IMG/VR virus record: IMGVR_UViG_2609460060_000003
Span: 1-64,000 of that record
Origin: a virus
Taxonomy: Duplodnaviria > Heunggongvirae > Uroviricota > Caudoviricetes
DNA length: 64,000 bases
Reading direction: 5' to 3' (one strand)
Positions 12,696 to 52,069 of the stretch are shown one piece after another. Each line of letters opens with the position of its first letter. Positions within the stretch are counted from its first letter, which is position 1. The translations under genes were made by a program, and so were the position numbers. Below the pieces are notes generated by a model, which searched no databases, was not told the origin of the DNA, and saw nothing but the letters and a program-made list of their open reading frames with translations.

Positions 12696-13550
12696 TGTGC
12701 GCCCAGCATGGGCGCGATCTTGGAGGTGAAAGCCCTCCCGCGAGCTGACCACAGCGAGCGAAATGAAGTGCAACTGCGTGAGGGCGACCGGGCGTGGGGA
12801 GGAAGCACGGAATGAACCCGTGAGCCGATGAACGAGAATCGGATATGAGGCGCGATGGAGCAAGGCGAGCAGGCACATCACTGCGAAGCTTTCGTGGTCA
12901 AGTCGAAGTCGCGCAGATCCGACGGTTGTGCGGGGAAGGATCGCGTTCTTACCTGGGGAGTTCTCGCCTCATGCCTGAAAGGGCAACGTCGTAAGACGGA
13001 GCGAGAAGTCAGCAGAGGCCGTAGTAGTCAGGACTCCGACGAAGGGCCGAACGAGAAGGAAAGCCAGAAGATATGACTCTTGACAGGACATTGCGTCAGA
13101 AGCCGAGGAAGCCCGGTACGGACCCGCATGCCGGGTGGTGTGGCAGGGGCGCAGCCCTTGTGCTCCCCCCTATGCCGATCAAGCAGAACATTGTGCTGGG
13201 CCTCTGACGCAGCTCCTTGATGGTCTTGGCATCGTGCTTAAGTGGATTGGTGTCGTCCCTGATAGGATCATGGAGGCAGAATGAAACTCAAAAATCCGGG
13301 ATAGCACGCAAAACAGGCTGCACAAAAAGCGCAGGTTGCGTAGGAGTGAAATCCCGCTCCCAAAAAATGGTGCAGAAGTTGCGGCAGTGGTCATCCGACG
13401 CACTGGAAAATAACAAACCCGCCGTGACCAGAATCGGAGGCCTGAGGGAGTGACCGAAAAACCGGACAACCCAGGCAGCAAATACCCGCTGGATGAGGCA
13501 TGGTTCCGGCAGATAATACCGAAAACCGCCAGACACACTGGATAATCAGT
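12696..13550 (+). mobile_element. Group II intron-like structured RNA segment (no intact reverse-transcriptase ORF; 3' boundary uncertain)
   Basis: Starts GTGCGCCCAGCATGGGCGCG (group II 5' GUGYG signature); GC-rich and GNRA-rich; CCGTAGTAGTCAGGACTCCGACGAAGGGCC resembles a domain II/III region; only short Arg/Pro-rich ORFs on both strands. Confidence 0.45.
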
Positions 13551-13599
13551 AGAAATAATCCATTAAAGTTATTATAATAATTGGTCACATTATTATATT

Positions 13600-14163
13600 A
13601 TGCTGAACAATAGAAATATGACTATTAATGAACTTAAAGACTGTATTCACTATGAAGTAATTGGTAGCGAGCGTCCTTTCTCTTGGCGAAAAGCAATTGT
13701 TCGCGCAATAAAACATAGAAGAGTTCGTTATTTATTTTGGTGGCGCATATCAAAATATCTTTTTGATAAAGGCGGATACAGGCGAAAGGTTGCAGGGAAA
13801 ATAGAACGCTTCATTCTTGACAAATACAATGTAACCGTTCCCTTAACGGTAAATATAGGGAAAGGGTTTGACATATCTTATCTCAATGGCGTTGTTATCG
13901 CTCACAAAGTCACAATCGGTGAAAATTGTTCAATTAAGCCCGGAGTAACTATTGGACTTCGCGGGGAATTTAATGACATGGATATTGTTATAGGAGATAA
14001 TGTGACCATTGGTTGTAATGCCACCATTCTTGGTGGCAAAGTGCGTATAGGAAACAATGTCACAATAGGTGCTCATGCATTGGTATTGCATGATATTCCT
14101 GATGATTCAACATTCATCACTAAATTTCAGTCTGAAGTTATCTGCTCGTCCTCCCGCACATAA
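13600..14163 (+). CDS. Hexapeptide-repeat (left-handed beta-helix) acetyltransferase, WcaB/CysE-like
   Basis: Tandem [LIV]-G-x4 repeats ([16 protein letters not shown]...[33 protein letters not shown]); AT-rich coding sequence; 3' end overlaps convergent tfa by 37 nt. Confidence 0.8.
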
Positions 14164-14744
14164 CCCTGATTCATCAGCTCTGGCCATACGATATCCGGAG
14201 CTGTACTGGTATCAATTCGACTCACTAATACTCTGTATTTTCTCCAGGAGTCCAGTTGTGAATTTTCCTCGTTTGTTGCTATTTCAAGATTAACTGCGTC
14301 CTGCAGAATTGCGATGTTATCTGTTGCCTCCTGGATCAACCTTGCCTTTTTCTCTTCCGCTTCCCGTATCCGAAACAGTTTTTCTGCTTCCTCATCCTTC
14401 ACCCAGGATACGCCGTCCCACTTCTGATACTCCCCTGCTGGCGACAACCAGGTGACATTCTCTGGTAGCGGTCCGGGTTCAGAAATAAACAACGCGTCCC
14501 CCGATGCCACCTCATAGACCGTTTTACCACGATGGTCTTCAACAATATTCCACGATTCATTTTCACTGTTGAAAACTGCCACAAAGCCAGTAGGAATTTC
14601 CGGTGGGGCGATATCTGTAGAATTAGCTGGCAGCCCTGTATGAGGTGGAATATATGCGTCATCTTCACCAATAAACTCATTAGTTCCGGCCAGCAGGTTA
14701 TAAATTTTTACTGTACGTGATTGTTCACTCATTCTGAATGCCAT
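14127..14744 (-). CDS. tfa: Tail fibre assembly protein (lambda Tfa-like)
   Basis: [51 protein letters not shown] is near-identical to the lambda Tfa N-terminus as recalled; start overlaps the tail-fibre stop (TAATG). Confidence 0.9.
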
Positions 14745-17700
14745 TATGCAAGCCTCACAATATAATTAAATGCGATGTTTTTAACGGTGTTTTCCGCGTT
14801 ACCAGCAGCATTAACGGTGATGGTATGTCCATGTGAACCAATCGCAACAGAGTGCGTATGAGCGCCAATACCAACTGTATGTGCATGCGCCCCTGCACTT
14901 GCAGCAGTGCCTGATACTGAGTGGGTGTGTGCACCAGAAGAAGGCACTGTTCCATTCCCCACGACCGTGCCACTTGATGAACCATCAAGCCAGTCGAAAT
15001 TCATACCTCCACTGTTTGGTCTCCTTAATGGAACGGTATGAGTATGTGCGCCAGCACTATTTGCAGTACCAGATACATTGTGGGTATGTGCACCTGTGTT
15101 ATTCGTTGGTTTAGTACCGTAATCAAACGACGATGTGGTTTTCGTCCCCAAATCCGTACTGGATGCGCTGGCGCTGTGGGTGTGCGATTTAATGCCGTCC
15201 TGTTCCTGAGACAATACGGCCCGACCACTGGCAGGTTTGCCCTTAATCGTCCAGCCACGCATATCAGGGATCACGCCTGACGGATAAGCCGCTGCAAGTT
15301 TCGGGTAGGCAGATTTGTCAAAAGCCTGCCCCTGCATCAGGGCATAGCCAGACGGAACGGTATCTGATGGCCACGGGATTGGTGCGCCGACTGGGTAGCT
15401 TTCTGGTGGAAGATTTTTCGAGGTATAAACTTCTGCCCAGTCTTCCTCAAAACCATAACCGTCTCTTGAAGAACGGTAGAACAGACCACCATTTCTGTAA
15501 TGCGCCTTCATCTGCAGGGTCCGGCAACTTCCGAATCCGGTATAGAAGTTAACCAGAATATAGCTGTCGCCAGAGCGGGTGACATTGTAAGCGCCTGATT
15601 CGGCATTCCAGGGAACGCCACCATCCGCATCGGCATATGTATCCGTTGACCCTCTGGCAAAAGCAGCCACATGCGCGGCGGTTAAAGTGATATCAGTAGA
15701 ACCATCAAATGGAACACCGGATATTTTTCTTGCAGTCTGAAGTTTTGTAGCAGTTGCAGCATTACCGTTCAAACTACCATTGATGCCGCCAGTAACATTG
15801 AGTCCATTACCGATCGTAACAGCACCATTGGCATTGTTAATGATAAGCGGCCTTAACCTATTATAGGTTCCTAGGCTGTTACCCGAATCGGTCAACATGA
15901 AATATGTGTTTGAACCATCGTTTCGGATAAAGAATCCGTAGTTTCCGTAGGCAATGCGCAGACCATTCGCCGATTTGGAAATAATCTCGCCAGCAGCAGT
16001 TAATCCGCCAGTTAACGCTCCTCCAGATAGTGGTAAAGCTCCGACATCAGCCGCAGTAGGCTTGTTTTTAGTGTTATACGCTCTGCGCCATCCTGGTGAA
16101 TAGCTCGTCCCGTTAAACACATAGACAAACTCCGCATTAGTGAGTGCGCCAGAGACACCTGTCGTTGTTGCCGTTGTTATACGAATCGTATAATTGTTTG
16201 AGCTACTGCCGTTATTAAATACCTCAATAACTGCGCCAGCCAGTGGAATAATGCCGCATCCTGTTTCGCTGTCTGGTATGGATGCACTATTTGCATACGC
16301 CCAGGCACAACGCGCTATCCATGCTTTTGCATTAAAAGCACCATTATCTCGTAGCAGAGTCACTAATTGCTCTGTTGTTATTGAAGCTCCATTATCACCT
16401 GTTACAAGCCAACCAGTAGGAGATGCCGGGCAACCAATATTTGCTGGTGACAGTGAAATATTCGCAGAACCGTCAAATGAAACCCCATTAATGGTACGCG
16501 CTGTTAGCAATTTGGTAGCCGTAGCTGCATTACCGGTTGTGTTCTGGTTACCAGCAATGTTTACACCCGGCAGATTGATATTGGCGGAGCCATCGAATGA
16601 TACGCCGCCTATTGTGCGTGCTGTTTGCAGTTTTGTTGCAGTTGCAGCATTGCCAGTAGTGCTCTGATTACCTGTTTTATTCACACCTGGCAGGTCGATG
16701 TTTGCGGTACCATTAAATGAAACGCCACCAATGGTTCTTGCCGTTTGTAATTTCGTGGCAGACGCCGCATTTCCTGTTGTGTTCTGGTTGCCCGTTGTAT
16801 TTACGCCCGGTATGGAGTCTTTCGATGTATAGACCTGTGCCCACTCAGACCATGCCGCATCTGTGTTATCTCTTCGGGAGCGAATGAAAACTGGCGCATG
16901 TGCACCGCTCGTACCACTCCAGCCAATAAGCAACTCGCCCTCACCAGCAGCACTCGCACCTTTCATGTGCAATACGTTGCCATACGTGGTCGGGTAGCTA
17001 TTGTTGTACGCCTCGTACATTTGAATGCCAGCAGTGCCTTGAGTAGAGCCGCTTAACGCCGTAACTCGGCCACGAGATACCAATGTATTAATGTTGATAT
17101 CGCCTGAGCCATCAAACTTAACACCGTTGATGTTTCTTGCCGTCGCAAGTTTTGTCGCGGTAGCAGCATTCCCCGTGGTGTTCTGGTTACCTGTTGTATT
17201 TACACCTGGAAGATTGATATTGGCCGAGCCATCAAATGCCACACCGCCAATCGTGCGTGCTGTTTTCAATTTCGTCGCGGTGTCGGCGTTCCCTGTCAGC
17301 GCCCCGGTGATCCCGCCGTTGAAAGTCTGGCGCGCACTCCATGTGTTAGCCGTGCTCAACAGGGGGATCTTTTCACCGCTGGTACCGAGTTCTCTTAAAC
17401 CAAGGTATTGGATAACGGCCAGTGTGCTTGTTTTAGCCAGAATATCGCGACCGACTGACGTTAAATCAGTCTGCGCTACCGTATCCTTACCAGTGAAATA
17501 AGGCAGTTTGTTTGCACCAGTCGCAAGGGCAGCGAGCGCGGTTAAAGTTGCATCCAGAGGCTGTTTGCCTGCCAGCGCATTTGTCATTGTTGTCGCAAAG
17601 TTCGGGTCATTGCCCAGTGCTGCTGCAAGCTCATTCAGAGTATCAAGAGCTTCAGGTGATGAGCCGACCAATGCAGAGATAGCAGCTCTTACATAAGCGG

Positions 17701-28955: not shown

Positions 28956-29236
28956 CCCAGAAAAACAAAAACCGGCGAGAAGTTACCACGAGAACGGAAA
29001 GTAAACAAGAATACTCCCATTGACTTATATCAATTAATCAACTTTTTATAAGCTATCCCTAACTTATTGTGTATAGCTGAAAAGTCAGAGACAAGTTCAC
29101 CATCTGCATTATTTCTTAAGTTAATAGTTTATTGCTAACTTAATTTATGCATCGACTATTGATATCCATCTTAAAGTTACAATATCCCTCTGCATTATTT
29201 TTCATCACAAATAATATATCTATTGCACGACACTAA

Positions 29237-29253
29237 TCTGCTCTAATAAATTT
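29237..29253. promoter_or_regulatory. C1 operator-like site upstream of the c4/icd/ant promoter
   Basis: TCTGCTCTAATAAATTT, 15/17 match to the operator consensus. Confidence 0.5.
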
Positions 29254-29291
29254 GTATTTTTAAGTCGCGAATGCTATCTTTTCGCATCATA

Positions 29292-29320
29292 TTGACCTTT
29301 TAATCGTTCAGGCTTATAGT
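29292..29320 (+). promoter_or_regulatory. Sigma-70 promoter of the immI (c4-icd-ant) transcript
   Basis: TTGACC, 17-bp spacer, TATAGT. Confidence 0.6.
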
Positions 29321-29439
29321 TTCGCCGTCGTAGCAAATTCTGCGACCGGGTTTAGCAGCCTGAATGATTGTGCGGACAGCCGCAGATATCCGATATTGCG
29401 GTATTTTTGTGTCCGTAAAACCGCGTTACGCCCAAATTA

Positions 29440-29515
29440 TGGTGGGGCGTGATGGGGAGGCTTCGGCCTGCTGGTTTCACAATCGCCAGTCTGCTAACCC
29501 CGTCACGTCCTGCCA
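29440..29515 (+). ncRNA. c4: c4-type antisense repressor RNA (approximate boundaries)
   Basis: Contains CACAATC and CTGCTAA, complementary to the motif GTTTAGCAGC...GATTGTG that occurs upstream (29350-29372) and again over the icd RBS (29519-29556). Confidence 0.5.
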
Positions 29516-29567
29516 CCTGTTTAGCAGCGGGTAGCAGGTTGTTAAACCTGATTGTGAGGCCGTAACT

Positions 29568-29789
29568 ATGGTTAATGCCAATCCTTGCGCACGCCAAGAA
29601 TTCATCTGGCGTTTCTATTCCTGCAAAAAACACCACTATCACTTCGTCATCGCAGCAACAGAAGACGAAGCACGCTCTCAATTGCCTGATGGCCCCTGCA
29701 TTTTTACTGCCCGTTTTTCAACTAACTCGCGCAATTCACTTAGTTACTGGAACCTCCCCTTCTCTGCCGACGTTCAGGGGGGTTTATGA
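29568..29789 (+). CDS. icd: Icd-like small protein
   Basis: 73 aa; its RBS (GAGG) lies inside the c4 target motif; position matches P1 icd. Confidence 0.55.
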   Translation: MVNANPCARQEFIWRFYSCKKHHYHFVIAATEDEARSQLPDGPCIFTARFSTNSRNSLSYWNLPFSADVQGGL

Positions 29790-29980
29790 AAAAACCTCTC
29801 GTCACCCGTAATGAAATAGCCGAAGCGATCGCCCTGCATACAACCTGTATGCCGACACGGGAGATCCCCGGCGCAATTGCCAACTATTTCATGATAACCA
29901 GGCGTTTTTATACCCGAACAGATAAGGCTGTGATCAACAAGCTACTGATAGCCGAGATCAGGGATTATTTGATTGAATAA
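29786..29980 (+). CDS. Hypothetical protein translationally coupled to icd
   Basis: ATG overlaps the icd stop (ATGA); 64 aa. Confidence 0.35.
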   Translation: MKKPLVTRNEIAEAIALHTTCMPTREIPGAIANYFMITRRFYTRTDKAVINKLLIAEIRDYLIE

Positions 29981-30034
29981 GGACGTCTACGTTACGCAAC
30001 AGTGGCAGCAGAAATAAGAAAGGAGGCACATAGA

Positions 30035-30820
30035 ATGACCGGTAAAAATTTGAATATTGAAAAACCAGCACCTGTTGCTTCAGCTACGCCAGCACCAGCC
30101 GTGAATGTCATCCCCAACATCGGAGACACAATCGACAGCCAAACATTGTTGAAGATGGTCAATGAGGCACGGAAATTATGTAGCGAAAAACCAGTTCGCA
30201 ACAATGATTTCATTGCCAGAGTTAAGGATGAGCTTGAAGGAGAAACCTACGAAATTTTCGTAGGTCAAAAAAACGGCGCAGAAATAGATATTATAACCAT
30301 GACCTACAAACAAGCCCTGCGAGTTGCCGCGCGCGAGTCAAAAGCGGTCCGCCGTTCGCTGATCGACAAACTGGAAGAATTACAGCAGGCAAACTCCCCT
30401 ACCCCATCGATCCCCCAGACATTACCAGAAGCCCTACGCCTGGCTGCCGAGTTAGCAGAACAGAAAATGCAGTTGGAACAACAGCTGGTGGCCGCAGCCC
30501 CTAAAGTCGATTTTGCCGACCGGGTATCAGTGGCCAATGGAATCCTGATCGGGAACTTTGCAAAGGTCGTTGGACTTAAGCAAAACGCCCTTTTCTCATG
30601 GTTGCGCCAGAACGGCATTCTCATGGCTTTTGGTGCGCGCAAAAACGTACCGCGCCAGCAGTACATTAACGCCGGGTATTTCACGGTGAAAGAAGTGGTG
30701 CTGGATGATGAAAATGGCTACCAGATACGGCTGACGCCCCAATTAACGGGTAAAGGCCAGCAGTGGTTAACTCGCAAGCTACTTGATGCTGGTTTGTTAA
30801 AACCAGTAGCAATAGGTTAA
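30035..30820 (+). CDS. Antirepressor (Ant-like, KilAC-type C-terminal domain)
   Basis: ATG 30035 with AGGAGG RBS; the C-terminal ~130 aa are paralogous to the C-terminus of the downstream KilA-like protein. Confidence 0.7.
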   Translation: MTGKNLNIEKPAPVASATPAPAVNVIPNIGDTIDSQTLLKMVNEARKLCSEKPVRNNDFIARVKDELEGETYEIFVGQKNGAEIDIITMTYKQALRVAARESKAVRRSLIDKLEELQQANSPTPSIPQTLPEALRLAAELAEQKMQLEQQLVAAAPKVDFADRVSVANGILIGNFAKVVGLKQNALFSWLRQNGILMAFGARKNVPRQQYINAGYFTVKEVVLDDENGYQIRLTPQLTGKGQQWLTRKLLDAGLLKPVAIG

Positions 30821-30897
30821 CAAAAGAAAAAACCTGCCAGCAAACTGGCAGGTTTCTGAGCAGATCGACCAACCCGATCTGGATCGAGTCAGAAAAA

Positions 30898-30914
30898 TTT
30901 GCTCTAATAAATTT
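30898..30914. promoter_or_regulatory. C1 operator-like site upstream of kilA
   Basis: TTTGCTCTAATAAATTT, 16/17 match. Confidence 0.55.
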
Positions 30915-30983: not shown

Positions 30984-31784
30984 ATGCAACAAACATTCAA
31001 TGCGGATATGAATATATCAAACCTTCATCAAAATGTCGATCCTTCAACCACTCTGCCTGTTATTTGTGGTGTTGAAATTACGACCGACCGCGCTGGCCGT
31101 TACAACCTTAATGCTCTACACAGAGCGAGCGGACTCGGTGCCCATAAAGCGCCAGCTCAATGGCTAAGAACGCTGTCAGCCAAACAGCTCATCGAAGAGC
31201 TTGAAAAAGAAACTATGCAGAATTGCATAGTTTCGTTCGAAGGCCGTGGCGGCGGCACTTTTGCCCATGAATTGCTCGCAGTGGAGTACGCAGGTTGGAT
31301 TTCTCCCGCGTTTCGGCTGAAGGTAAACCAGACATTTATCGACTATCGAGCTGGAAGATTACAACCTGCTATTCCGCAGAGCCTCCCAGAAGCTCTCCGT
31401 TTGGCTGCTGACCTGGCAGAGCAAAAGCAACGGCTGGAGCAAAAAATGCTGATGGATGCACCTAAAGTCGAATTCGCCGAACGCGTTGCTACCGCCAGCG
31501 GGGTTCTAATCGGCAACTATGCCAAAGTGCTCGGCCTGGGCCAAAACTATCTCTTCACCTGGTTGCGTGATAACGGAATTCTGATCGCAACCGGTGAACG
31601 CAGGAACGTCCCCAAACAAGAATACATATCCCGTGGGTATTTCACCCTTAAAGAAACCGTGATCGATACAAGCAATGGAAGCAGGATTTCTTTCACGACT
31701 CGTATAACCGGCAAAGGTCAGCAGTGGCTGATGAAGCGATTGCTTGATGCTGGTGTGCTGGTACCTGTCGCGGCAACGCGCTAA
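30984..31784 (+). CDS. kilA: KilA-like protein (KilA-N domain plus KilAC-type C-terminal domain)
   Basis: 266 aa; N-terminal region with the KilA-N pattern, C-terminal antirepressor-like domain; followed by repL. Confidence 0.7.
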   Translation: MQQTFNADMNISNLHQNVDPSTTLPVICGVEITTDRAGRYNLNALHRASGLGAHKAPAQWLRTLSAKQLIEELEKETMQNCIVSFEGRGGGTFAHELLAVEYAGWISPAFRLKVNQTFIDYRAGRLQPAIPQSLPEALRLAADLAEQKQRLEQKMLMDAPKVEFAERVATASGVLIGNYAKVLGLGQNYLFTWLRDNGILIATGERRNVPKQEYISRGYFTLKETVIDTSNGSRISFTTRITGKGQQWLMKRLLDAGVLVPVAATR

Positions 31785-31813: not shown

Positions 31814-32659
31814 ATGCTGGCTAAAGTCACTTTCCTGAGCTGTATAACGATGAGCGATTTTACTTTTTCTGGCTATGAATTGGCCTGCTTTGTAACACAC
31901 TCCGGTCTATCCCGTAGCGCCGGGCATATCCTGTCGCAATGTGCAAATCTAGCGGCAACAACCAGTGAATACTTCATTCACAAGCCTCACCGCCTGATCG
32001 CGGCAGAAACTGGTTATAGCCAATCAACCGTCGTTCGTGCATTCCGTGAAGCTGTAAACAAAGGAATTCTGTCTGTAGAGATTGTTATCGGCGATCACCG
32101 TGAACGTCGCGCTAACCTGTACCGGTTTACACCATCCTTTTTGGCCTTCGCACAACAAGCCAAAAATGCGCTGATTGAAAGCAAATTAAAGATCTCTTCA
32201 GCGGCAACCAAGGTTAAAGCTGTTCTCGCTAAGACATTGGCTTTATTTAATTTTTTATCCACACCCCCATGTCAAAATGATACCCCCTCCCCCTGTCAGG
32301 ATGACGTGGCAATAAAGAATAAGAAGTCACAAGTTAAAAAAACAAAAAGATCAGTTTCCGGCGGTGCCGGAACGAGCAGACTCAAAAAATTGACTTCATG
32401 GATCGCTGAGGCAAAAGCAAAGGCTGACAATCTGCGGTTATCCAAAAAGCGCGCTCAAAAACATGAGTTCAAGCAGAAAGTAGAGGCGGCAGCGCGGAAA
32501 TATGCTTACCTGAAGAACAAGCGTTCTCCTGATATTGGCGGGGTATCAAACTTCGATAATTTGCCGCATTGCATGACGGTAAACGAAGCTCTTAATGCGG
32601 TTTTAGCCAAAAATAAAGATAACGAACAATGGGGTATACCGGCAGGATTCAGAGGGTGA
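31814..32659 (+). CDS. repL: Lytic replication initiator RepL-like protein
   Basis: 281 aa directly downstream of kilA; start may instead be the internal ATG at 31850. Confidence 0.55.
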   Translation: MLAKVTFLSCITMSDFTFSGYELACFVTHSGLSRSAGHILSQCANLAATTSEYFIHKPHRLIAAETGYSQSTVVRAFREAVNKGILSVEIVIGDHRERRANLYRFTPSFLAFAQQAKNALIESKLKISSAATKVKAVLAKTLALFNFLSTPPCQNDTPSPCQDDVAIKNKKSQVKKTKRSVSGGAGTSRLKKLTSWIAEAKAKADNLRLSKKRAQKHEFKQKVEAAARKYAYLKNKRSPDIGGVSNFDNLPHCMTVNEALNAVLAKNKDNEQWGIPAGFRG

Positions 32660-32955: not shown

Positions 32956-33078
32956 TACAATCGTTGCGGGTGCTTGAGGCTATCTGCTTCAGGCATTACC
33001 CGAAAAGCAGATAGAAGAAAGCCCCAGATAACATTACGCGTCCTGCAAGACGCTTAACATTAATCTGAGGCAATATCT

Positions 33079-33285
33079 ATGCTTAGCATACGTAGATTAG
33101 CCTCTTACCGACCAAAAGGTCAAGGAGAAGCAGGCTATGAAGCAGCAAAAAGCGATATTAATCGCTCTGATCGTCATCTGTTTAACCGTCATTGTGACGG
33201 CACTGGTAACGAGGAAAGACCTCTGCGAGGTACGAATCCGAACCGGCCAGACGGAGGTCACTGTCTTCACAGCCTACGAATCTGA
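33079..33285 (+). CDS. mok: mok-like overlapping frame of the hok module
   Basis: 68-aa ORF beginning 58 nt upstream of hok and overlapping it in a different frame. Confidence 0.4.
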   Translation: MLSIRRLASYRPKGQGEAGYEAAKSDINRSDRHLFNRHCDGTGNEERPLRGTNPNRPDGGHCLHSLRI

Positions 33286-33292
33286 AAGGTAA
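33137..33292 (+). CDS. hok: Hok/Gef-family type I toxin
   Basis: MKQQKAILIALIVICLTVIVTALVTRKDLCEVRIRTGQTEVTVFTAYESER matches the Hok pattern (TM helix, TRKxLCE, AYES); GGAG RBS; below the track 60-aa cutoff. Confidence 0.85.
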   Translation: MKQQKAILIALIVICLTVIVTALVTRKDLCEVRIRTGQTEVTVFTAYESER

Positions 33293-50382: not shown

Positions 50383-50457
50383 GATGGTGTAGCTCAGCGG
50401 TAGAGCAGTTGGCTGTTAACCAACTGGTCGGTGGTTCGAATCCACCCACCATCGCCA
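50383..50457 (+). tRNA. tRNA-Asn (anticodon GUU)
   Basis: Cloverleaf folded by hand: acceptor GATGGTG/CACCATC, D-arm GCTC-AGCGGTA-GAGC, anticodon loop CTGTTAA, T-arm GGTGG-TTCGAAT-CCACC, encoded CCA. Confidence 0.85.
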
Positions 50458-50462
50458 CTTTA

Positions 50463-50549
50463 GGGGAGTTAGTCCGTAGGGGTAGCGGGGTAGACTGTAA
50501 ATCTACTGTCATTGCGACTCGGGTGGTTCGACTCCATCACTCCCCACCA
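50463..50549 (+). tRNA. tRNA-Tyr (anticodon GUA), class II with long variable arm
   Basis: Perfect 7-bp acceptor stem GGGGAGT/ACTCCCC, anticodon stem-loop GTAGA-CTGTAAA-TCTAC, variable-arm hairpin, T-loop TTCGACT, encoded CCA. Confidence 0.7.
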
Positions 50550-50553
50550 AATT

Positions 50554-50629
50554 GCCGGTTTAGCTCAGTTGGTAGAGCGCCTGCCTTGTAAGCAGGATGT
50601 CAGCGGTTCGAGTCCGTTAACCGGCACCA
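50554..50629 (+). tRNA. tRNA-Thr (anticodon UGU)
   Basis: Acceptor GCCGGTT/AACCGGC, D-arm GCTC-AGTTGGTA-GAGC, anticodon loop CTTGTAA, T-loop TTCGAGT, encoded CCA. Confidence 0.85.
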
Positions 50630-50720
50630 ACACAACAGGTAAGGGTATTTTGCGACGTCGGAGATCGCCGTGCTTGGCAGAGGGTTCGAATCCCTACGAA
50701 GTACCCTTACCGTTGTGATG
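50630..50720 (+). other. tRNA-like / long-hairpin element (non-canonical; contains a T-arm-like GAGGGTTCGAATCCCT)
   Basis: CACAACAGGTAAGGGTA pairs with TACCCTTACCGTTGTG about 55 nt downstream; no canonical cloverleaf could be folded. Confidence 0.3.
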
Positions 50721-51360
50721 AAGTGCAGCTCTTTGAAGCAACCAGAAGATAAGCATCTGGCTTCACAACATAAACCGCAGGAACGACCAATAAACGGTAG
50801 TCCGTATGGAGAACACCCCGTTGAGGAAGAGGCCTGGCCGGAACCGTAACCGGCACTACAACGTTGAGAACACTGGCGTAACGGGGTCATATCCCAATCT
50901 ACGAATAAATGTTGCGTTGCAGCGTGACAACCAGTGTTCTCAACATTGTGGTGAATGCACAGGCTGATGTGCCGCAACTACAGTAGTGCGCGCTTTGCGG
51001 GGCTTGCTACAACCCTGTGTCGGAGTTCAGCACCGACCATCACAGTTTGATTCTCTGGCATGAGCATAACGCTGAAATAAGTCCAGTCTGGTGCGGCCCG
51101 ATCACCCGCCGTTAGCTCCACGAAACGGAGCACGTAACAGGTAAGAGCATTCTCCTGTAACGGGTTCATATCCCAATCTACAGGTCCACCAGGAATGCTC
51201 TTTCCGTTGCGGTGAATGCGGCTAAGCGCACGCGGAACAGTTAAAACAATCCTCCTTAATGGTTAAACATTCCGGCGTTAATTGTTAACTGGTTAACGTC
51301 ACCGGGAGGCACTCGGCACCGCAATCTAATAAATATGTCACTTTTATTGAGGGATAACCA

Positions 51361-51795
51361 ATGTTCGGTAAATTGTTCGGCAAGAAAGTCGCTTCTGCAA
51401 AAGTAGAGCTGAAAAAAGTTGAGAATCGCGATCTGATGGAGGCCATCATCGGTGGCTGTTTGTTGGTGTCTGCCGCTGATGGTGAAATCGAAAAAGAAGA
51501 AACAGCGAAACTTGATCAGCTTGTCCGCTCTAATCCGCGTCTTAGTCATTTTGGTAACGAAATTACTGCAACAATTACCCGCTTTACCGAGCAACTGGAA
51601 GCTGGCTTCCGTGTTGGTCGCATGAATATCCTTCGCGAAATTGAAGATATCAAAAACGATCCAAAAGAAGCGGAAGAAGTATTCGTTAACATGCTGACAA
51701 TTGCAGAAGCGGACGGTGAAATCGAGCCAGCAGAACACAAAGTACTGGAAGAAGTAGGCCGTCGTTTAGGTCTTCGTGTGGAAGATTATCTGTAA
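51361..51795 (+). CDS. tciA: TerB-domain protein (TciA-like)
   Basis: 144 aa with two AADGEIE repeats typical of TerB. Confidence 0.75.
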   Translation: MFGKLFGKKVASAKVELKKVENRDLMEAIIGGCLLVSAADGEIEKEETAKLDQLVRSNPRLSHFGNEITATITRFTEQLEAGFRVGRMNILREIEDIKNDPKEAEEVFVNMLTIAEADGEIEPAEHKVLEEVGRRLGLRVEDYL

Positions 51796-51959
51796 TGGCA
51801 AGCAAGGCACGTATCGCAATCGCCATTGGTTTTCTCTTGCTGTCCGTGCTGGTGGATTTCACCAGCACAATCCTGTCAGTTTTATCGGACGGGGCGTTGG
51901 TGGCAGTAGCTGTAACATTGGTATGGCCGATATTAAAAACAGCTTCTAAGGATCAGTGA
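51795..51959 (+). CDS. Small membrane peptide (TciB-like), translationally coupled
   Basis: 54 aa, ATG overlaps the tciA stop (TAATG); two hydrophobic segments; below the track cutoff. Confidence 0.4.
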   Translation: MASKARIAIAIGFLLLSVLVDFTSTILSVLSDGALVAVAVTLVWPILKTASKDQ

Positions 51960-52066
51960 TGGGCTTCTGGGATTTTGCTGACAAGCATCCAATTGTTCTC
52001 GTTGTCATTGCTGGCATAGTTGTAGGCGGTATTGCTGGCGTCATAGAAGCACTCAGGAAACAGTAA
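51959..52066 (+). CDS. Small membrane peptide (TciC-like), translationally coupled
   Basis: 35 aa, ATG overlaps the upstream stop (TGATG); single TM segment. Confidence 0.35.
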   Translation: MGFWDFADKHPIVLVVIAGIVVGGIAGVIEALRKQ

Positions 52067-52069
52067 TCC

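Follow-up and report, generated by a model that had tools for sequence, protein, structure and literature searches.

The stretch of viral DNA analysed here (the 64,000 nucleotides at positions 1 to 64,000 of IMG/VR record IMGVR_UViG_2609460060_000003, hereafter the window) carries, between positions 29200 and 30900, the immI (secondary immunity) operon of a P1-like phage-plasmid (Punavirus) with P7-type specificity and a loss-of-function allele of ant1, an identification that we hold with very high confidence. Four reference records, P1 (NC_005856), P7 (AF503408), RCS47 (FO818745), and phi456 (OR339795), were aligned with the window, and each matched 29200-30900 as one collinear piece, with identities of 98.9% for phi456, 98.6% for RCS47, 96.1% for P7, and 93.3% for P1. 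The annotated operator, promoters, a1/b1, c4, a2/b2, icd, ant1, and ant2 of P1, P7, and RCS47 align base for base onto the window, and this anatomy is therefore read directly from the alignment. The order known from P1/P7 immI was recovered as well, that is, a C1 operator overlapping a promoter, then c4-icd-ant1/ant2, and then Op53-kilA-repL, with the ORFs and the Pfam domains in agreement with the alignment. Judged by its sequence, the element belongs to the P1/P7 immI family by every criterion tested save an intact ant1. An earlier note, made from the letters of the window, had already read the region as immI with an operator, a promoter, a c4 antisense RNA, and duplicated targets. The Rfam match to C4 and the alignment with P1/P7 bear this reading out, and the coordinates and sequence statements that the note gave for 29236-30035 all proved correct in the motif search, the ORF list, and the promoter scan. 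No evidence contradicting the immI identification was met, and the functional step is the uncertain part. The immI/c4 system found here is already known, both in Rfam and in the annotated P1/P7 records, and its architecture is without novelty.

The upstream edge of the operon is marked by the C1 repressor operator Op51, also named Op(c4) (TCTGCTCTAATAAATTT, 29237-29253, + strand), which is identical to the protein_bind feature of P7 and aligns with Oc4 of P1. It is the same operator that the earlier note had proposed. Two promoters are located on the same strand. P2c4 (formerly P51a, 29251-29280) overlaps the operator, with its -35 element at 29251-57 and its -10 element TATCTT at 29275-80; it was placed through the alignment from the annotation of NC_005856, and its stretch is identical to that of P1. 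P1c4 (formerly P51b, 29292-29320) is formed by TTGACC and TATAGT with a spacer of 17 nt, scores 10/12 in the consensus scan, and aligns with P1c4 of P1, which confirms the near-consensus promoter of the note. At the downstream edge, a GC-rich 13-bp hairpin lies past the ant stop codon (30828-30857; reported on the - strand by the terminator scan) and is a candidate terminator-like operon boundary. The next C1 operator, Op53 (ATTGCTCTAATAAATTT, 30898-30914, + strand), corresponds in the alignment to OrepL/Op(rep) as annotated in P1 and P7 and controls kilA and repL, which are found downstream of it at 30984-31784 and 31814-32659, respectively, when the P1/P7 annotation is mapped onto the window.

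Within the 64 kb there are exactly two occurrences of the motif GTTTAGCAGC-N-GATTGTG (29350-29372 and 29519-29556), and the complement CACAATC-N-CTGCTAA is located between the two copies at 29478-29497. No such motif pair appeared in 100 dinucleotide-preserving shuffles, and 0 are expected by chance. The duplication, the intervening complement, and the covering of the icd ribosome-binding site by the second copy had been described in the earlier note and were all recovered at the same positions. The first copy holds the upstream c4 targets a1 (TTAGCAG, 29352-58) and b1 (GATTGTGC, 29366-73), which together span 29352-29373 on the + strand and on which Rfam, the motif search, and the transfer of the P1 annotation agree. 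The second holds the downstream targets a2 (TTAGCAG, 29521-27) and b2 (GATTGTGA, 29550-57), spanning 29521-29557 on the + strand according to the motif search, the P1 annotation, and the alignment. This second copy ends in GATTGTGAGG (29550-59), which contains GAGG 8 nt before the icd ATG at 29568, and b2 overlaps this icd Shine-Dalgarno sequence (GAGG, 29556-59).

The mature c4 antisense RNA is predicted as a 77-nt form at 29441-29517 (+ strand), based on Rfam and the misc_RNA annotations of P1 and P7. Among the checks that the earlier note had suggested for this region were an Rfam scan and an alignment with P1/P7 immI. In the Rfam scan of the whole window, C4 (RF01695) matched at 29435-29520 (+) over the full model 1-87 with 69.6 bits against a gathering score of 45, and c4-a1b1 (RF03163) matched at full length at 29314-29366 (+), upstream of c4, with 54.6 bits against a gathering score of 46.7, both above the gathering threshold; in the alignment, every annotated regulatory element was mapped. 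The 77-nt c4 folds at -44.9 kcal/mol (z = -5.7) into a structure that agrees with the Rfam consensus. In this fold b′ (CACAATC, 29478-84) occupies a hairpin loop and a′ (CTGCTAA, 29491-97) a single-stranded junction. The exposed b′ and a′ are complementary to both of the transcript's target pairs, the upstream one and the one that covers the icd ribosome-binding site. As the 77 nt are 100% identical to the c4 of P7, processing to an RNA of about 77 nt and repression of icd/ant in trans are expected for this element too. The 56-aa “transcriptional regulator” that overlaps c4 in gene calls is an annotation artefact.

Exact-pattern scans of IMG/VR and GTDB genomes yielded 96 related stretches, and 49 loci among them span the whole leader. 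These loci fall into four classes according to the bases of the a and b motifs. The P7 type (a AG / b AT), which includes the window, accounts for 31 of the 49, the P1 type (a GA / b TA) for 5, and two hybrids for the remaining 8 (a GA / b AT) and 5 (a AG / b TA). Across all four classes and in each of the 49 loci, a1 equals a2 and is the complement of a′, and b1 equals b2 and is the complement of b′. When the 237-nt leader was aligned across one representative per class, the majority of variable columns fell inside the six motif copies. The antisense pairing is strongly supported, since the complementarity is kept through compensatory changes and the variation is concentrated in the motifs; both the complementarity and the covariation are direct observations. 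The earlier note had let its c4 reading stand or fall with a C4 covariance-model match and complementarity conserved in related phages, and the reading stands, with the match present and the complementarity conserved in relatives via compensatory changes. The window equals P7 at all six a/b motif copies, and P1 differs by two bases in each. As the motif bases are identical to those of P7, P7-type immunity specificity is predicted, and a c4 of this class predicts to which other P1-like elements the plasmid is immune. As a more speculative reading, the four fully compensated classes may point to c4 specificity being a two-module code, naturally shuffled into all four combinations; no discussion of the natural occurrence of all four a/b combinations was found in the accessible literature.

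The icd gene (29568-29789, + strand) encodes a cell-division inhibitor of 73 aa and aligns with the annotated icd of P1, P7, and RCS47. The exact protein is found on at least 1000 public contigs under Icd-like names, and a Pfam scan of Icd gave no family. The stop codon of icd and the start codon of ant1 overlap as ATGA at 29786-29789, unchanged in five of five aligned sequences and present at 80 of 81 scored loci; the exception (L041) is also the relative whose ant1 went unscored, apparently owing to an indel. Expression of ant needs icd (PMC8201110).

The ant1 reading frame extends over 29786-30820 (+ strand) with 345 codons including the terminal stop, the same 1035 nt as in RCS47 and phi456, and is a pseudogene. 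Its translation is interrupted once, at codon 65: a C→T change at 29978 has converted the Gln65 codon, CAA in P1, P7, RCS47, and phi456, to a premature ochre TAA (29978-29980, + strand). The positions 29786 and 30035 and the stop at 30818-30820 all share one frame. Thus, the apparent 64-aa ORF (29786-29980), joined to icd by the ATGA overlap, and the 261-aa ORF (30035-30820) lie on either side of this one codon. An intact ant1 would have about 344-348 aa with an in-frame ant2; here, the frame is conserved and TAA stands at codon 65. The same frame is marked by RefSeq as a pseudogene with “internal stop” in NZ_CP059910.1 (plasmid p3 of E. coli 181.1). Past the premature stop, ant2 is intact (30020-30820, + strand), with the Shine-Dalgarno sequence AAGGAGG at 30020-26 and an ATG at 30035, 54 nt beyond the TAA, which matches the ant2 start of P1, P7, and RCS47. 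Its 261 aa carry a KilAC/ANT domain (Pfam PF03374 at 8e-31), and the residues past the TAA are 98% identical to RCS47 Ant1/Ant2.

Because the sequences are near-identical, we infer for this element the mechanism established in P1/P7, including the RNA processing, the translational repression, the coupling, and the effect of Ant1 loss. Transcription would start from P2c4 and P1c4, the first of which overlaps the C1 operator, and C1 bound there would limit it. The transcript would carry a1/b1, the c4 RNA, a2/b2, icd, and ant1/ant2 in this order. The c4 RNA would be excised from the leader as a structured RNA of 77 nt, and its b′ and a′ would pair with b2 and a2, masking the icd ribosome-binding site. 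Without icd translation, the ATGA-coupled ant1 would remain silent with no productive transcription into ant, and without the Ant1/Ant2 antirepressor, the C1 repression, and with it lysogeny, would be maintained. The antirepressor is an Ant1-Ant2 complex whose synthesis is repressed by c4 (PMC8546580, PMC8198154, PMC12197685), and in the proposed scheme this complex would bind and inactivate C1. In a CRISPRi screen, c4, icd, ant1, and ant2 were dispensable for lytic growth (PMC10695390).

The present element would produce no more of Ant1 than an N-terminal fragment of 64 aa, next to an Ant2 of 261 aa that is initiated separately; c4, icd, and ant2 are unaffected. Since antirepressor activity is ascribed to an Ant1-Ant2 complex, its loss or weakening is, by analogy, the most likely effect of the ant1 TAA, and the plasmid lineage is probably without a functional Ant1/Ant2 antirepressor. 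Low-level readthrough of the TAA may occur. A missing antirepressor could alter the inducibility and the superinfection behaviour of the lineage.

The genes downstream of icd were understood differently in the earlier note, which took the 64-aa ORF as a genuine extra gene coupled to icd and the 261-aa ORF as a separate, differently organised antirepressor, in departure from the P1 layout. The ORFs themselves were given with the right coordinates and lengths, but the extra gene turns out to be codons 1-64 of ant1, ended by CAA→TAA, and the separate antirepressor is ant2, in the same frame past that single TAA. The supposed departure from P1 is likewise mistaken, as ant1 overlaps icd by ATGA and ant2 uses an in-frame internal start exactly as in P1/P7; the layout seemed novel because a nonsense allele was taken for a gene boundary. 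It is true that the 64-aa ORF begins with an ATG within the icd overlap ATGA and ends in a regular stop, and that some assemblies call it as a hypothetical protein. Yet it lies in the ant2 frame, and a single base stands between it and an uninterrupted ant1 of 344 aa; codon 65 is CAA, and so read through, in all 100 relatives, and the DNA is 93-99% identical to and collinear with ant1 of P1, P7, and RCS47. RefSeq records an internal stop here, and the 64-aa fragment has no Pfam domain of its own, the Pfam scan having given no family. Given the shared frame and the single-base difference, the extra-gene reading was dropped as refuted by the alignment, and we give it almost no chance of being right; the 64-aa “hypothetical protein” of the gene callers is an annotation artefact. 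A nonsense codon of this kind might instead come from a sequencing or assembly error in a really intact ant1. In favour of an error, T at 29978 was found in 0 of 100 related loci, all of which have CAA (36-mer matches: 93 listed IMG/VR stretches, 3 GTDB, and 4 phage records), and of the matching records, about 480 from plasmids and 478 from complete E. coli genomes, NZ_CP059910.1 alone reached an identity of at least 99%, being the single 100% match in the roughly 480 complete plasmid records. However, an exact-sequence look-up found the exact 64-aa product called on 61 contigs in NCBI, ENA, and Logan assemblies (index: 116 blocks), and the carrier plasmid occurs there in at least two structural versions, with and without IS100. 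In three carrier places that were compared, identity with the window was 99.98-100% over up to 6.2 kb, and UWMZ01000003.1 among the carriers matched it at 100% along the 6.2 kb examined. Because the exact product is found on 61 contigs, a private mutation or a sequencing error was rejected, and we consider an error highly improbable. The ant1 TAA, seen directly in this many assemblies, is a real mutation that marks one near-clonal plasmid lineage.

For this real mutation, selection may be weighed against neutral decay. The ochre codon could have been selected by locking the plasmid state, or by leaving an antirepressor that is split or made of Ant2 alone and is regulated differently. The TAA allele has been maintained in a lineage represented by 61 contigs, ant2 remains intact and 98% identical to RCS47, and ant1 has been lost by other lesions, being cut elsewhere in four relatives (194, 207, 242, and 314 aa) and interrupted by an mcr-1 insertion in a P7-like Klebsiella plasmid (PMC5786510). 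These other truncations and the insertion also indicate that sporadic loss of ant1 is not unusual. On the other side, 73 of the 82 scorable genes of relatives (about 89%) retain an ant1 of the normal length of 344-349 aa (four others have 462-469 aa), and the 61 contigs may represent one successful host clone or a sampling bias, because the carriers are near-clonal, with 100% identity over 6.2 kb. On balance, we regard selection of the TAA as unlikely, and we are similarly doubtful that the ochre is a “domesticating” lesion providing a stabler plasmid (lysogenic) state or a changed superinfection response. If the TAA was selected, the lineage would be a natural Ant2-only experiment on the need for both Ant proteins. 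For the known immI operon with its loss-of-function ant1, the significance is slight beyond correct annotation, and the remaining mild interest lies in the persisting ant1-null lineage and in the four a/b combinations in nature.

In P7 (96.1% identity over 1.7 kb), the order and spacing of the elements are those of the window from the operator to ant2 and on through Op(rep)-kilA-repL, and the operator, the c4 RNA, and all six a/b copies are identical. The differences from P7 are codon 65 of ant1, which is CAA in P7 and TAA in the window, scattered substitutions in ant, and an ant1 frame that is 12 nt shorter in the window (1035 versus 1047 nt), with the window having the length of RCS47 and phi456. 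P1 (93.3%) shares the architecture and the mechanism, and its ant1 is intact. In contrast to the window, where a is TTAGCAG and b is GATTGTG, P1 has TTGACAG and GTTAGTG, differing at all three sites, and such base differences in a and b are the known basis of P1/P7 heteroimmunity. Upstream of the operon, P1 carries simABC, whereas the window, P7, and RCS47 carry two membrane or lipoprotein genes. RCS47 and phi456 (98.6-98.9%) have the same 1035-nt ant1 frame as the window, but with CAA at codon 65 and thus an intact ant1. The plasmid NZ_CP059910.1 matches the window at 100% across 5.3 kb of immI-kilA-repL, the TAA included; it differs from the window by an IS100 in the tail-fibre region, which the window lacks, and by a few SNPs in the tail-fibre gene.

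The natural specificity of c4, the 77-nt antisense RNA of the immI operon, was found to fall into four classes, in which the a bases are AG or GA and the b bases are AT or TA (window 29352-29557; related loci L001, L005, L007 and others). The 49 loci with a whole leader are distributed over these classes as 31, 8, 5 and 5. In each of the four, full compensation was observed among the upstream target sites (a1/b1), their complements within c4 (a′/b′) and the downstream target sites (a2/b2). The specificity sites are interleaved along the leader as a1, b1, b′, a′, a2, b2, and therefore a single crossover between P1 (GA/TA) and P7 (AG/AT) cannot yield either of the "hybrid" classes, GA/AT and AG/TA. 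An ORF of 56 aa (window 29364-29534, + strand) overlaps the c4 RNA and is labelled "transcriptional regulator" or "hypothetical protein" in many public records, for example as Orf29 of phi456; this annotation looks like a relic of the era when c4 was taken for a protein.

The allele of the antirepressor gene ant1 in the window, with a C→T change at 29978 that makes codon 65 a TAA stop, is shared by the related locus L104 (GCA_027837595.1). The two differ by a 1-nt indel within the 6.2 kb compared, which may represent an additional lesion of the operon or an assembly error. The icd product of L104 is called as 80 aa (about 2784-3026 of L104) rather than 73 aa, and the same indel may be the cause of this call. 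Just 3' of repL lies a hok/sok-type toxin-antitoxin module (window 32968-33292, + strand), consisting of a sok RNA match (Rfam RF01794, 32968-33142, 114.3 bits) followed by a Hok-like ORF of 51 aa (33137-33292).

Two Rfam matches to group II intron D1-D4 (window 12778-13047, + strand; 96.9 and 46.8 bits) sit in a stretch of ~1 kb without an annotated gene, flanked on one side by a holin gene and on the other by one for a serine acetyltransferase. They look like an intron fragment, because domain V/VI gave no Rfam match at E ≤ 0.1 and the stretch holds no ORF of at least 100 aa on the intron (+) strand. Some portion of window 13000-17000, a query that shares no more than the final 48 nt with the intron matches, was matched by 63 Sinorhizobium plasmids.

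The closest complete record, plasmid p3 of E. coli 181.1 (NZ_CP059910.1), carries IS100 (istA/istB) between its tail-fibre and tail-fibre-assembly genes, at a point equal to window ~14748-14752, where the window is without IS100. Beside this site, a 1.8-kb part of the tail-fibre gene is 99.6% identical between the two, not 100%. A cluster of four tRNA matches was also located on the + strand (window 50383-52142), at 50383-50454, 50463-50546 (long at 84 nt and weaker, 41.9 bits), 50554-50626 and 52070-52142; three tRNA genes have been described in P1.
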